The notes under the pieces are model-generated. The model made no database searches and was not told the DNA's origin. It was given only the letters and a program-made list of their open reading frames with translations. From Octopus vulgaris (lineage: Eukaryota), in the NCBI GenBank assembly GCA_951406725.2, contig OX597823.1, forward strand, positions 74,834,001 to 74,898,000: a DNA stretch of 64,000 nt. The letters run 5' to 3'. Of the stretch, positions 8,985-63,590 are shown in pieces. Made by a program: the position numbers and the translations under genes. The stretch's first letter is position 1, and each line of letters begins with the position of its first letter.

Positions 8985-9122
8985 AGGCGCAGGTGTGGCT
9001 GTGTGGTAAGTAGCTTGCTAATCAACCGCATGGTTCCGGGTTCAGGCCCACTACGTGGTATCTTGGGCCGACCAATGCCTTGTGAGTGGATTTGGTAGAC
9101 GGAAACTGAAAGAAGCCTGTCG

Positions 9123-9153
<31 letters not shown>

Positions 9154-51870: not shown

Positions 51871-54800
51871 CTATTTTAAAATAATTTCAAAATTGCAATT
51901 GATAATAAACTATCAGACATCATACAATAGTTTTGTCTCAAATCGTACCTTCGGTAAAGTTGAATAAAACATTTAGCATGACATTTATAGATGGAATTGG
52001 CGGAAACACTTCTCCAAAGTTTATGTCACCACCCGCAGATAAGTTCCAACAACAAAAAGAAATGGCGGGGGTGGATAACAATATAAAGAAAAAAATTACG
52101 GTATCTTAAGGTAAAGTTTAATTATCAACATTCCCTATAATCTCCGCAATATAGTGTACACGACTTTTCTACACAACGAGGAAGAACTATGTCTAAAACT
52201 ATCATGAAATAGTTTAATATAATATAACGGAAGCATCGAAATAAAGTATGAATGAATTAAAATTTCATGTGAGTCATTTTGCATACGATTTTAAAGCTAC
52301 GAATAAATTAAGATATTAAAACAGTAGAATTATTTTCCCAGTAACGTGGGCTACCAATGTTAAATATTAATGCTTGAAAAGCGCATTGAATATCGTCTTG
52401 ATGATATAAATAATACAACTCTCTACATGATGTTCACTCCGACTCAGATAAGAAACAAATAAAACCTTCCATCCCAAACAGTGAACTTCTTGCTGCAACC
52501 TGGAAACGATCATGTGTATTTTGAATTACATTTGGAAATAACATATAAAAGAATGAAAGCATTACATGTGTATTACTTAGCAGTTAGAATAAGTCTAGGA
52601 CTGCTAAATCTCGGAAGAAATTTTCATATAATATTTTAAGTCACAGAAATGAAATCCTAAACAATATTTTGCAATGTATCGTATGTCAAATGAGAGTTGC
52701 AATCACGTAATAAACATCCATCTCCTCATTCTATGCTCCTCAACACTTAGTTGAATTCTATAACAATAAAAGTATTTATCCAAATCATTAAGGTCATTAT
52801 CAGTGATGATCTGTAATTATGATTGCATGATATATGACAATAACTATATATGTATGTATATATATATATATATACATAATATGTAATATTATATATATAA
52901 TATTACGTATTAGATATTTATGAATATATGTATGAAACATAATATAATTATTTGCATAATATATGTTCCCACTGAGAGTTCTGAGAGTTAGAATTAATAC
53001 AATGTAAATTACAGGCATGATCTTCATTAATTCCAGAGAAGCGATCACGAACAGCAAATGCTTTTCATTATGAAATACAACTTTTCTGCTTAATTGCTTC
53101 TTTCATATAATCGACTTTACTAAGGACATTTATCTTCATTATTTAACGTATTTGTATGCAGTATGCTCAGATGTACAATACTTAGCGAAACGCAAGGAAG
53201 GAATCAACATTGCATGAAACGGAAATTATTACTAAATGTTTAATTTCTGTTTAAGCAAGAAATTTATTCAGAACTTCCTCAACGAGATCTTTCTGTTTTG
53301 GATGCGAATATATACACGGCGCACTAATAGAGAATTCACCGGGTTAAATAACGTGCACAAGTTAACGTCAATCTTTCGGAGATTTCTATGTATTACACTT
53401 AGGTAGACAGATTAAGTAGCGTCTTTAAACCTTGGTTTATTCGCAAGATTACATTTATTGCAAGCATATGCAAATAGTTTTACATTATGTTTTAGCTTCT
53501 GAGTCGTATCATCGCCTTTCTATTACAAACAATATATCTGAAATTTTGGAAAAGATTAAATTCGCTGTCACATCAATTAAATATCAATTAAATTCGCTGT
53601 CACATCAATTAAACAAATGCACATCAATTCTAATGAAACAGTAACAAAAGACTTTCCATTGTGCCATTTCTATTGACACTCTGAGATGAACGGTTTAGAA
53701 TATGTTACTCTTCATCACGTTATATAACCGATGGCAGATCATACACTCGTAGTGAGTAAATGTTTAAATGTTTAAAAGGCCAATATAACTTCTACAATAA
53801 ACCCAGCTCGTAATTATTTAATTGAGCCCGATAGAATAACAGGCGCAGTCCACGTCGGAGTAATTTTATCTCAGTACTACTTCAGAAGAACTGTAAAAGC
53901 AAATTAGAATGGATTTTCTTGGCCCCGTGTGTAAAGTAGGGAGGCGTCGATTTAATAAGTAGCTACTACTTCCATGTCATGCCTTGATGGCAAATTGAAT
54001 GAAATAAAGTAGCGACTGCATGTACTTACAGGTTAATAGTCTGTATGCCGCTACAGATATGGTGCAGTATTCTTCAGGCTTTCTGATGTTGTTGCTGTTG
54101 TTCTGATCGTTATTGTTGTTGTTATTAGTATTATTACTTATACGGTGTGCTTAGTAATCTGATAAATAATTGTTAAATCAGGTGTAATTCTAGTAGAAAT
54201 TGCAGACAACTTTTGAAATTATTCCTTCCATTCGATTTATCCTACAGCTCAAGATTCAAGGTAATGTCTATGGCACATATGCACCGAAGTTTGTACAATT
54301 GGAGAAGTAAATACTGCTGTATAACGAACAATATGTAGGTAATATATTATCTGACTCAGCAATATTTAAAGAATATTTCTTCTACCATAAAATTAATTTA
54401 CATTAATTTGCGCCTAACTTATTATGTCGCAGAATATAAGTCACGTAAAAATGTTAATGCACCGCATAGCTTCTAATTAACATAATAGTGTTTATTTGAT
54501 TAATATATTAAAGTGATTCACTGAGAGAAATCTTTTATTAGATATATAAACAAATAAATGTATGTATGGATTCATAGTACAAAGAAACATTTATCCAGGG
54601 GGATTGCTTGATGATTTCATTGCAATTCAGTTTCTGTCTTTCTTCATTACAAAAAAAAACAACATATATATAATTGTATAATTTTCCTTGCTACTGTTAG
54701 CACGATACACACAGTAAAAGAGATGCTACTTAGTTTGTTTAGTGTAAAAAGAAATAATTGAATAGAAAACGGGAAACGTAAGCAATAGTTTCTGTTTCCA

Positions 54801-58878: not shown

Positions 58879-58915
58879 AGGCGCAGGCGTGCCTGTGTGC
58901 TAAGAAGCTTGCTTC
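58879..58915 (+). mobile_element. interrupted SINE head (8985 family)
   Basis: AGGCGCAGGCGTGCCTGTGTGCTAAGAAGCTTGCTTC aligns with 8985-9020, then similarity stops abruptly. Confidence 0.75.
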
Positions 58916-60913
58916 TTCGCGCATGCGTTGGTCAGTGTTTTCTTTTGCACTGCTAGTAGCCACGACACCAACGTCGTGAATTATTGAACGAGTGAAGCAC
59001 AACTACAAGGTAAGACATTTGTTTTTATGGGATTCAGTGCGGGTTTGTTGCTCGTGTTTATTTATTTTGTCGAACAAGAAATCTCCACTGAGTTCCTGGC
59101 ACATTGTCTGCCTGTAGTTGTGTTTAAAGCCTCACTTAGCGGTGAGAAAATATGTTTTGGGGGCGTATCCCTCCTCCTATAATTGTGCATATTTTTTTTA
59201 CCTATTTTTGGTGGAATTGTTTTGTCACTGTTTTGTGCCCTGGATTACCAAGTGAATTACCGAGTTGGCCAGGAGTACCAGTACAGGCAGGAGAATAGTT
59301 TGCTGTGTTTTTGAACTTTTCTTGTCTTCTTCCTTCCTGCATTTTTTAAAACTCTGTGAACTTTTGTTTGCTGTGAACCTTTTCCCCAAACAAACATGGC
59401 AAAAAGATAAACAAACTAAGTTAGAGTGGAAGATTGTCCCACCCAAACAGTGTATGAAAGACTTTGAAGAGAGGACGGTGGTGTTAAGGATTTACCCGAA
59501 GTCGCTCGACATCATCGCTTTCTTTCAAAAGACACAAAATGAAAAAGATTTGGCAAAGCATTTGCCAACTATTAAATTCATCTCTAGTGGGGTCAAGTAT
59601 ACAACGGTGTGGTTGCTATTTGTCACCCCTGAGGAGGCTTGCAAATTTGCAAGCCATCCCTTAGAGGGTAACGGGATTTTGCTTCTACCCACGTATAGTG
59701 GGAAGATGTTAACAAGAGGTTGGATCTGCGGGTTGCCACCCAGGATAGAACCCGAGTGGATAGAAGACACTATCCGCCGGGGTCTGGGTGATAGCAGATC
59801 CAAGTTGCTTAATGTTAAAATTTTGCCGGCGGCTGATTGTGAACGCAATCAGCTAAGAATCTGTTTTTTTCCAGATCTTTTGAAAATGGCCGGTTGCAGA
59901 TACCTGGTGATACTTGAGGAAGCCCCTCCCCCCAAGCATCACTTGTGTCTGGAACCGGGCCATATTAAAAAGAATTGTCCCCAGGACCAGAGTAGGGTAC
60001 TGGAACAGTTGGTTGTCGAAGAGCCCCCTCGTCCTCCAGGGGGATAGTTGGAGGTAATCGAGGACGTAGAAAGTTCCCCGAAAATAAAAGGAAAAAAGGA
60101 AGAATGTAGACAACAATGGTTGCTCACCGAAGGATCCTAAACCTGCGGGAGGGGGGGTGATCCTCCGGTTAAATCAGAGGAACCATCCCTTCCCGTATCA
60201 AAGACAGATAAAAGAAGAAAAAGAATGGGACAGTGCCGGCGGTTGGTAGTACACTGCCGGCTTGTCCCGAAACCTCGTCGGTGGGGTTTGTGCCACCGAC
60301 GCAGGAAACTGTAGCCCCTCCCAGTATAATAAATGAAGAATTTACGATCTTCTTTCTCAAGGGAGGGGCCGTAGAGAACTTTGTAGTGAGGAATCTAAAA
60401 GATCGGGAAAAGGAGGTTCTGAACTGCATTGAAAGTCCGTATTGGCCTCCGCAGGTGGCTGCGGAGGTCATGACAGAAAATTATTTCTACTGGATGATGT
60501 TTTCCTTTACCAAAGATGAATACAATTATCGCTTATGGGCCCCAGCTTGCAATTGCAGGCTTGCCTGCAGGCGGCAAGAGATTTAATCGGGGAGGTAGAA
60601 GAGGTCTTAGTACCTCGATTCCAACTTGGTGATTTTGGCAAGAGGCTTAGCGCGTCAACTTGAACGTATTTGCTCAACATTTATTTTTTGATTGGTAAGA
60701 GGCTCAGTGCCTCAATTTGTAGCTGTTGTAAGTGGTTCAACACCTCATTTGAGTTTTAAAAAAGAACAATATTATCGGGCAGTAACAATCGGTGGGCGTT
60801 GGTTGTTTCCCCCACAAACCATAACTTTTTTCATTCCATCGTCATCATTGTATCTGTGTCCGTCCCGCAAGTTTTCATCTGTATTATGCTTTTATGGCAA
60901 ATGTAATGAAATA
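58916..60913 (+). mobile_element. ORF1-only (HAL1-like, L1/Tx1-type gag) retroelement, unit 1
   Basis: T-rich 5' UTR, gag-like ORF and T-rich 3' UTR ending in AATAAA. Bounded by AAGAAGCTTGCTTC on both sides. No RT or endonuclease motifs seen. Confidence 0.65.
59265..60047 (+). pseudogene. Tx1/L1-type ORF1-like nucleic-acid-binding protein (RRM-like region plus CCHC knuckle), mildly decayed
   Basis: ERTVVLRIY...IKFISSGVKYTTVWLLF...LLLPTYSGK..TRGWICGLPPRIEPEWI...LVILEEAPPPKHHLCLEPGHIKKNCP. Coding-like sequence continues in broken frames to ~60590. Confidence 0.65.
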
Positions 60914-60927
60914 AAGAAGCTTGCTTC

Positions 60928-62672
60928 CGGTTACCCATGTTTCATTTGCTTTGTTGATTTTGTACGAGATAGACGTGTTTTTTTCGGCTGTGCGATATTT
61001 TTACACCTGTGAGATGGAGGGGTGTCGAGTGGGGAGCTGCGAAAGTTTAATTTGTTCTGTGTCAAACGTTGAATGCTGCCCTTCGTCGGAGTAAGAATTG
61101 GTAGAGTGCCTTAATAAAATAGACAAGGCTATGGAAGAAAGAACTTATGCTGCAGCGACGGAAGAAAAGTGTGAAGGCATAAGGGTGGAGGATGTAAGCA
61201 AGTTTAAGGGAATGTTTGAAAGGGGGGTGGACGAAGTGAAGGTGTCCGCACCTTCACTATTTTTGAAGGAAGTAGCGGAAATAACGGTAATTTATAGAAC
61301 GTACTCAGTGGCAGCCAGAAAAAAACTGAGAATATGTCAACGGCACAAATAGATAGAAAAGGCGTTGAGATCAGTCTAGCAAGGGATTTGGTATCTTGTT
61401 AAAGGAAAGAAATTTGGAACGGTAGAGATGCGGTTTGGAAACGTAGCCACCACTAGGCTGCACTCAGCAACACAGCTGAAAACGAATGAGGTAGTTTTTC
61501 TACCAGTATGCCTTGTGAGACGTGCTTTGAGGGTTAGGGTGGAGGAAAAACCACCGGAGGTAGATGTATCCTGGCTGGTGGCTGCTATATTTCTAGGAAT
61601 GGAGTAGAAGGTGGTAGTCCTACAGGCCACCAGAACACCTCCTAGGAACTGGCGAGGACAAACCCGTGATATGGTGGTGCAAATGACGGAGGTGGATATC
61701 GAATAATGGTCGAGAGCATCGCAGTGGGAGAGACGATATTAAAGGTCAGAGTGGAAAGTAGGATTCTGCATGCTATAAATGTGCCCTGAACGGACACGTT
61801 AGAGTGGAGTGTCCTCCACCACTGGAAAACGATAAGGAGAGACGCAATGACCAAGTGGTTGCTGCTCCTATGGCCGTGGAGGAAGAAGAAAGAGATGTGG
61901 CATCACAGTGGAAGGCGGGTACTAGCTTTGAGTAGGGGGAATCGAATACCAGCTGGGAAATCGTGGAGAAGAAGACCAGGAAGTGAGGAAGAGGACACAC
62001 GTGGTAACGGATGACCCCCAACCCACTCACAACAGACCAACACACAGTCGGCTCGAACCGCTCCCTACAGAAATCAGTCCCCATCCACGCCCCGCCTGAC
62101 ACGAAGACAAGCATAAACACACAGGAGCCCCAAAATCCCGCATCCTCGCACTGGGAAAGAAATACTTTGTATTATACAACAGACATAACAAAGAACTATA
62201 TAAAGAAATAGAAACATGGGATTCTGCAACTAAAGTGGACACAACAGAGTAAGGGAGTTGACGGAGAACATGCGATGTGCGGTGGTGGAACCGGAGTAAC
62301 TGGCAAGATTGAAGAAGTATGAGAAATACTTTAAGTGGTGGAGAAAGAGGATAAACCCAAGTACTATGCCAGAGCGGGTGAGTTATTTTGGCATTCTTGT
62401 AAAATATAAAATTGATATATTGAGTAAAAGATAATTAGTTGCTACAAATCGTAATGAAAAAGGTGTTATAAACTGTTTTAAATATGTTGTTGCAAATGGC
62501 AATAAAAACGGTGTTGTAACAGATTCAATGAAGTCTTTCTGAGTTGGAGACGAGCAATTTCATTTCATCTTTAATTATATAATTTCATTCATTCCATTCG
62601 TTTATTTGTTTTTTGTCCCCACCTTATGCTGTCCCCTCTGCGTAAGGCGTTTATGGCCAAGTTCATAAAATA
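60928..62672 (+). mobile_element. ORF1-only retroelement, unit 2 (divergent paralog of unit 1)
   Basis: ATG at 61131: MEERTYAAA...EITVIYRTY...IWYLVKGKKFGTVEMRF...VFLPVCLVRR..RVRVEEKPPEVDVSWL. Perfect CYKCALNGHVRVEC knuckle at 61771-61812. Ends TTTATGGCC...AATAAA before the motif at 62673. Confidence 0.7.
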
Positions 62673-62686
62673 AAGAAGCTTCCTTC

Positions 62687-63590
62687 CGGTTGTCTGCGCT
62701 GTGTGAGTTGTCATTTTCATTGTTGAAACTCTGTTATTTATTGTAAACTTGTTGAAAATCATTATTGCGAACTTTTGCCTGTTTGCAGGCTGTGTTGGAC
62801 TATTTTATTTCTCGGTGTTTAAGGGAATAGTGAAATTTCTGTAGCCATTTGGCAATTGTTTATTCGATTGGATTCTCCAACGGAGTGCATTTTTAAAATA
62901 TAGCATTTGTAGGCATGTTGAACTGCGCCCCATTCCCGTTTGGGGATGGGGTTTGAACTGTTGTTCCTATTGCGAGGAATTTATTTTTTGTGCTATGGAA
63001 AATAAAAGGAAACCTGCAATTTTCTTTTGAAAAGTAAAACTTAATTCAGCCGTTTTAGACTTTCTATTTGGGTTGCGCTCACCCCACTGACAGGGGTGGG
63101 ATTTGAACTGTTCTTCCTCTTGAGAGGAAGTAATGTTTTTGAACAGAAAAAAGGAACGGAGTCCTATAATTATTCCTTTGAAAAAAATGAACTGTTTTTC
63201 AACCGTCTTGGGCTCATTGAGCTACGCCTCTTCCTCTGTCAGGGGTGAGTTTGAACTTATTGATTGCCAAAAAAAAAAAACTCTTGGAATTGTGTTTTTT
63301 TCTTCTTTGTTCGTGTTCATCCCGACCGAAATGCCGGTTGAGATAATAAGAGAAAAATGCTCTCCTACAGAGTATAAGGCTTTGGAGGCTAACGAGCCAC
63401 CAAAAGAAGTCACCGAAAGCTTTGCGGCAGTCGCCACCGTACAGATGGAGAATCTGGAATTCTCATTATGGTAACTTCACGAAATGAAAGGATTACAGAG
63501 GAGAACTGTGAATTAAAAATATCACCTCCCACCAACACAAATGGAAAGATAATAAAAAGACAATTATATTTGAAACGTTCTGTCCATGTA
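62687..63590 (+). mobile_element. 5' part of a third unit (5' UTR and ORF start), 3'-truncated
   Basis: Starts CGGTT like unit 2, right after AAGAAGCTTCCTTC. T-rich UTR with a repeated GGGG..GG.TTTGAACTGTT motif; ORF MPVEII...ESFAAVA. Confidence 0.45.

Follow-up and report, generated by a model that had tools for sequence, protein, structure and literature searches.

The window, the whole 64,000-nucleotide stretch of Octopus vulgaris DNA analysed here (contig OX597823.1, positions 74,834,001 to 74,898,000), carries at positions 58879-63590 a head-to-tail train of retroelements. The train consists of two elements that code only for the first open reading frame (ORF1) of a long interspersed element (LINE), followed by the stub of an autonomous LINE of the L1/Tx1 group, all placed at a single base in the head of a short interspersed element (SINE). 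A first-pass annotation, made from the letters alone, had described a train of ORF1-only elements; this is right for units 1 and 2 but not for unit 3, which comes from an ORF2-bearing family. The following features were delimited.

58880-58901 (+): SINE head with an A-box-like motif, severed from its body
58902-58915 (+): target motif 1, AAGAAG variant, target-site duplication (TSD) plus element-borne 5' mimic
58916-60913 (+): unit 1, ORF1-only element of ~2.0 kb, U1 lineage, decayed
59388-60574 (+): unit-1 ORF1 remnant (tblastn) with two predicted RNA recognition motifs (RRMs), a CCHC knuckle and the C-terminal part, broken by a stop and a frameshift
60885-60915 (+): unit-1 3' tail, short hairpin and GAAATA
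60914-60928 (+): target motif 2, the junction of units 1 and 2
60929-62672 (+): unit 2, ORF1-only element of ~1.75 kb, U2 lineage, decayed
61203-61983 (+): unit-2 ORF1 remnant, knuckle near 61771-61815, with stops and frameshifts
62644-62674 (+): unit-2 3' tail, hairpin and an AATAAA overlapping the target
62673-62687 (+): target motif 3, one mismatch
62688-63585 (+): unit 3, 5' untranslated region (UTR) and ORF1 start (ATG at 63331) of an older autonomous family
8986-9130 (+): uninterrupted head of the target SINE in its AAGTAG variant, serving as an empty reference site
53957-54013 (+): 5'-truncated tail from this system, 50 bp, with the 7-bp repeat AAGTAGC on its flanks and no SINE head around it

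The motif AAGAAGCTTGCTTC begins at 58902, 60914 and 62673, the last with one mismatch. When up to two mismatches are allowed, the window contains four matches against 0.48 expected, and none of 100 shuffles reached this number; the recurrence noticed in the first-pass annotation is thus above chance. The fourth match is the reverse strand of the first, which is near-palindromic. It had also been stated that each motif overlaps an AATAAA and precedes CGGTT, which applies to the second and third motifs only, the first lying between the SINE head and TTCGCGCATG. In unit 1, the AATAAA (60910-60915) runs into the target, whose two leading A's complete it.

Units 1 and 2 do contain homologous, strongly diverged ORF1 remnants. 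That of unit 1 is found at E 4.5e-80 by tblastn with an intact young relative as query, and that of unit 2 matches the autonomous ORF1 at 36% and L034 at 65%. Their common 3' end, likewise reported earlier, is 80% identical over 55 nt. As had been claimed, reverse transcriptase (RT) and endonuclease are missing, a tblastn with an intact ORF2 finding no similarity to either anywhere in the window. Pfam recovers from the decayed frames of the window a weak knuckle alone; the reported CCHC knuckle is present in unit 1, but this copy has lost one cysteine and its zf-CCHC match is weak (E 0.035).

The target SINE is a dispersed, short, non-coding repeat whose exact head 34-mer occurs 57,542 times in the genome (control, 0). 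Insertions lie at GTGTGGT^AAGWAG, a point of the head that has the A-box-like motif on one side and the B-box-like motif on the other. The earlier name 'tRNA head' fits the tRNA-like spacing of these boxes and a weak alignment to eight tRNAs of the genome (z 2.2-5.3), but neither ARAGORN nor Rfam calls a tRNA or ribozyme on the SINE head or on the LINE locus scanned. This SINE may resemble the octopus SINEs OK, OR1 and OR2.

The association with this site holds genome-wide. For unit 1, 29 other loci were surveyed, taken from the best 30 of 40 scored candidates: the SINE head and the motif are found at 19 of the 21 visible 5' ends, and the motif adjoins 17 of the 18 visible 3' ends, nearly always followed by the SINE body. 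The 29 other loci of unit 2 gave a similar picture, with the motif at the 5' end in 23 and next to 16 of the 17 visible 3' ends. A pattern for unit-1-type tails, blind to the flank, matched 67 times (63 AAGAAG-like sites, one AAGTAG and three unrelated), its last letter concealing about a quarter of off-target sites. The arrangement anticipated by the first-pass annotation, a SINE head upstream and a SINE body downstream, is therefore general. Because head and body surround nearly all copies, SINE and insert could in principle have been amplified together as one composite element. However, the flanking SINE bodies are only 89% identical, against 98% for the 3' UTR of the elements, one young family occupies several SINE variants, and 5'-truncated inserts join the head with duplications of their own. 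Since the flanks are more diverged than the inserts, the insertions must be independent, and joint amplification is so improbable that we treat it as excluded.

An autonomous element with endonuclease and RT, the same target and the same 3' tail, whose existence had been proposed, is present as a young family of 5.44 kb (mean identity 98.5%) with an intact ORF1 and an ORF2 frame of 1,140 codons. Its ORF2 contains PF03372 Exo_endo_phos (E 4.9e-12), PF00078 RVT_1 (E 1.9e-27) and PF13966 zf-RVT (E 1.4e-08), and its best solved relative is L1 ORF2p (E 1.3e-66), R2 reaching just 1e-19. The family has 107 exact 3' ends; among the 100 listed, 99 adjoin the AAGTAG variant, none AAGAAG and one an unrelated sequence. 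The 3' flank, read at 79 loci, is the SINE body in 72, another element in four and other sequence in three. The resulting site specificity of ~95-99% exceeds the limit of >20% of flanks that Kojima uses for Tx1 (99/100 of the listed ends here, and 64/67 for the unit-1-type tails). An older, decayed copy of 5.0 kb (L116), with remnants of ORF1, endonuclease and RT, lies at an AAGAAG site. The window's unit 3 represents the 5' end of an older autonomous family: of 21 distinct other loci of this family, 13 have ORF2 sequence at most 1.5 kb downstream, and the beginning of the unit-3 ORF shows a weak alignment with the young ORF1 (35%, E 0.002). Its 5' UTR has an internal repeat spaced 150 bp; the remainder of the element and the SINE body are absent at the window locus.

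Searches for relatives with ORF2 returned unnamed or hypothetical proteins and no named Tx1 reference. Relatives at 51-64% in Argonauta hians (P0052, P0221) suggest, from protein similarity, a LINE lineage common to octopods. In the limpet Patella caerulea, the relatives of the P0062 cluster bear consecutive alternate locus numbers, and this cluster may be a tandem train of like kind.

The ORF1-only units are families in their own right. All 23 units that could be delimited from motif to motif, including the two of the window, carry ORF1 without ORF2 similarity and measure 1.47-2.19 kb, in line with the earlier expectation of full-length copies that lack ORF2. They could be seen as chance internal deletions of the autonomous LINE, as their ORF1 is homologous to the autonomous one (24-37%) and internally deleted autonomous copies do exist (L257, L260). 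This is very unlikely, however, given the constant lengths of 1.5-2.2 kb across chromosomes, the lack of ORF2 in 23/23, the identity of 95-99% among young ORF1-only copies, and the ORF1 tree. In this tree the U1-type, the U2-type and a 1.5-kb type each form a well-supported clade distinct from the fourth supported group, the autonomous family, and show internal purifying selection. For diverged subfamilies, the ratio of nonsynonymous to synonymous change (dN/dS) is 0.07-0.19 within U1, 0.14-0.25 within the 1.5-kb type (one closer pair there has 0.46) and 0.32-0.40 within U2; among close, decayed pairs it is 0.4-0.67. The frames were picked for openness, which introduces a slight bias to conservation. 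Judged from these ratios, purifying selection acts on the ORF1 of three ORF1-only lineages, and the satellites therefore likely need their own ORF1 protein (ORF1p).

A structural model of a young unit-1-type ORF1 (predicted local distance difference test score 82.7) contains two RRM folds and the knuckle. It resembles tandem-RRM proteins (Foldseek E 2e-05) and superposes on the La RRM with Z 9.4 and a root-mean-square deviation of 2.6 over 83 aligned residues; zf-CCHC is detected in 15 of 22 ORF1 members at E<=1. A long terminal repeat retrotransposon or provirus was rejected as an identity, as there are no long terminal repeats and Pfam shows LINE domains only. The units encode ORF1 alone and spread as families of their own, as do HAL1 elements, which are derived from mammalian L1, are poly(A)-tailed and are not known to be site-specific. 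HAL1 of mammals likewise comprises several non-autonomous lineages that code for ORF1p only (PMC5753468). The octopus elements differ in inserting at a specific site, in lacking poly(A) and in their RRM-RRM-CCHC ORF1; they are HAL1-like in function, not members of HAL1.

All families, coding or not, end in a short hairpin followed by GAAATA, and poly(A) was found at none of the junctions read. One exact junction of tail and target occurs 76 times in the genome, preceded by many diverged families that have this one tail: ORF1-only units, a 500-bp non-coding unit, RT-bearing copies and truncated stubs, the 5'-truncated stubs of 50-500 bp being joined to the SINE head. Across 30 diverse tails the 4-bp stem is paired in 90.5%, with 18 double changes (0/500 shuffles as high) and a GC/UA ratio of 13:13 at one pair, a covariation that sequence relatedness may have inflated. 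An apparently non-coding element of ~490-510 bp with the same tail and target (L065, L069, L110, L112, L120, L122, L137) forms a further satellite class.

The motif arises as a duplication, of which the distal half is overwritten by a mimic that the element carries. The 5' motif copy ends in TAACC in 60/60 full-length young LINEs, among them all 24 with a 3' copy that deviates at positions 10-16. An extra base is seen in 16 of these 24, compared with 7 among the 36 without such a deviation (p 0.0004), and variants at positions 7-9 are common to both motif copies in one of five full-length copies. Truncated copies, by comparison, have genuine duplications of 15-16 bp with common variants (L232, L274), and 5'-truncated copies with intact 3' ends and duplications of 7-16 bp were found at L064, L066, L102, L232 and L274. 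The earlier description of the motif as a TSD is thus correct as to the duplication, but the last 5-7 bases of the 5' copy belong to the element. A motif intrinsic to the element terminus had been regarded as incompatible with site-specific insertion; it is intrinsic in part, and site specificity is unharmed.

Trains occur much more often than would be expected if the site were re-used independently. With 1,175 exact junctions and 57,542 empty heads matched exactly, occupancy is ~2%, a rough value given that the two patterns differ in length. Yet contact with another element is seen at 14 of 72 young-LINE 5' ends, at 11 of the 16 5' ends visible in the unit-3 family, and at the 3' end in 18 of the best 21 full-length copies of one young ORF1-only family, these being the best matches to a query itself within a train. 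The first-pass annotation had proposed that elements stack by independent, sequential insertion into the regenerated site. The trains themselves are confirmed, and the full motif kept at junctions agrees with this view, which is also the published reading for R1 arrays and SINEU-3 tandems. Inheritance of train partners as fixed dimers is unsupported (Mantel r -0.23 and -0.02), which likewise fits de novo formation. But simple re-use alone cannot account for the frequency of trains at ~2% occupancy, neighbours are loosely similar in age (Spearman 0.54, p 0.048, n 14), and the model would survive only with a strong preference for occupied sites; we consider it possible but somewhat unlikely. We favour an origin of trains in coupled events. 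The simplest would be a template jump that leads from one RNA, at its target-like 5' end, to the read-through 3' end of another with matching ends. Rapid and preferential re-insertion at the fresh 5' junction would be an alternative coupled event.

Three young autonomous copies, ~99% mutually identical, stand head to tail at G000:C9:2664544-2680870 (L285, L296, L188). Mixed young trains of up to at least four units were seen at L291, L286 and L293, with compositions such as three ORF1-only units and a LINE, or LINE-satellite-LINE. At G000:C1:111116887-111116972, two tail-target junctions of opposite orientation are 66 bp apart. Joined forms in contigs on L181 were discarded: they are other SINE copies, and the contigs fall short of unique flank.

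Taken as a whole, the data are best explained by ORF1-only elements that are copied in trans by the endonuclease and RT of the LINE, all at one base of the SINE head, a reading to which we assign a probability of roughly 0.87. The endonuclease would nick the bottom strand before AAG. The element RNA would read through into target sequence, because the AATAAA is completed only by the target, and could thereby pair with the primer. The top strand would be cut ~9-16 nt downstream, where the target-like 5' end of the complementary DNA would anneal. Satellite RNA would be packaged by its own ORF1p and borrow ORF2p via the tail. Several points weigh against this reading. We infer the nick position, the read-through and the mobilisation in trans from sequence; the old autonomous full-length copies examined in detail amount to one, the decayed L116; the Tx1-clade label comes from architecture and behaviour, not from comparison with named references; and the high train figure for the ORF1-only family derives from best matches to a train-borne query. 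Moreover, the 3' tails are alike in structure and ~70% identical by column, so tail recognition must be loose.

The target itself has evolved. Uninterrupted heads fall into classes with pairwise identities of 78%, 87% and 94% (13, 37 and 16 copies); AAGAAG heads form the oldest class, at 78%, and account for 3,841 of the 57,542 exact heads (6.7%). Old families are inserted in this AAGAAG class and start with GCTTCC. Young autonomous and young ORF1-only families, although of different lineages, lie in the younger AAGTAG classes and start with GCTAAC or CTTAC. Timing explains the match of old families to the old variant. For the young families, the match could reflect the abundance of the variants at the time, with no discrimination, given that AAGAAG heads are few and oldest, and that old, methylated or decayed heads may make poor targets. 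Against this rather improbable view, none of 99 young insertions is in an AAGAAG head (P ~0.001 at 6.7% availability), and inexact sampling of heads gives A-type in 16 of 74. The young match suggests instead discrimination by the endonuclease or by RNA pairing. In the endonuclease hairpin loop, two old copies, both decayed, differ from the young loop and from each other. The whole element group appears to have followed the SINE as it evolved.

A bolder proposal, which we hold tentatively and think may well be wrong, is a self-retargeting LINE consortium that preys on the SINE. RNA ends would serve as short guides, because the poly(A) signal is completed inside the target only and the 5' end recaptures target bases; the LINE and all its ORF1-coding satellites would have switched jointly to each new SINE subfamily, the internal promoter of the SINE would be split, and mixed trains would arise by template jumping.

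Each component has a precedent. A close parallel is Tx1-Mar/SINEU-3 of crocodilians (Kojima 2015, PMC4494074), where a Tx1-type LINE likewise targets another abundant transposon, non-autonomous partners are mobilised to the same site (as we propose for the octopus), and duplications of ~16 bp are sandwiched in tandems. Tx1-Mar, however, targets two regions of a Mariner DNA transposon, not one base in a SINE promoter head, and the SINEU-3 partners are non-coding SINEs, whereas the octopus partners code for an ORF1 that is conserved. Tx1L in Tx1D of Xenopus (PMC1950540, PMC4494074) is likewise a LINE with an apurinic/apyrimidinic endonuclease (APE) and strictly specific for another mobile element; its target is a piggyBac-type DNA element, and no ORF1-only satellites or tracking of target variants are known for it from these papers. 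R1 and R2 offer a precedent for read-through annealing and TSD-separated arrays (R1: PMC2718515). R1 of Drosophila 28S ribosomal DNA (Stage and Eickbush 2009, PMC2718515) is also APE-type and site-specific, with arrays separated by a 14-bp duplication and with target sequence on the RNA ends that, as in our reading, has been proposed to anneal at both junctions. It belongs to a different clade, and its ribosomal target is unchanging, whereas the SINE targeted in the octopus is dispersed and evolves. Multicopy small-RNA sequences are likewise the targets of Dewa, Keno, Mutsu and Dada (PMC3706591), but they belong to genes of the host or to gene spacers and not to a selfish SINE. PMC13282606 reports 13 recently active L1-Tx1 families, the word 'target' not appearing there. 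In its workings the system resembles Tx1-Mar/SINEU with HAL1-like partners and R1-like junctions. We found this combination, a SINE-head-targeting LINE with ORF1-only satellites, nowhere in the open literature; Repbase, Dfam, subscription journals and preprint supplements, which lay outside the search, may hold a description.

In the octopus genome, a site-specific LINE can be compared with its coding satellites and its moving target along a naturally dated series. Three questions become testable: whether an APE-type LINE changes target through the endonuclease loop or through RNA-DNA pairing, what maintains selection on ORF1 in ORF1-only elements, and by which route head-to-tail arrays arise. 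The LINE is also relevant to RNA-templated insertion tools, as it was active recently and hits, with ~99% site fidelity, a dispensable target of which tens of thousands of copies exist.

Two minor observations concern tails found elsewhere. The truncated tail at 53957-54013 of the window is an off-target insertion, and its AAGTAGC repeat hints at the minimal recognition word. A second abundant SINE has 24-30 nt of its tail in common with the autonomous 3' UTR and ends in GAAATA (L034, L053, L139), followed by GGTA in 30 of 68 copies and by TATA in 12 of 68, which suggests a related, less specific LINE partner.

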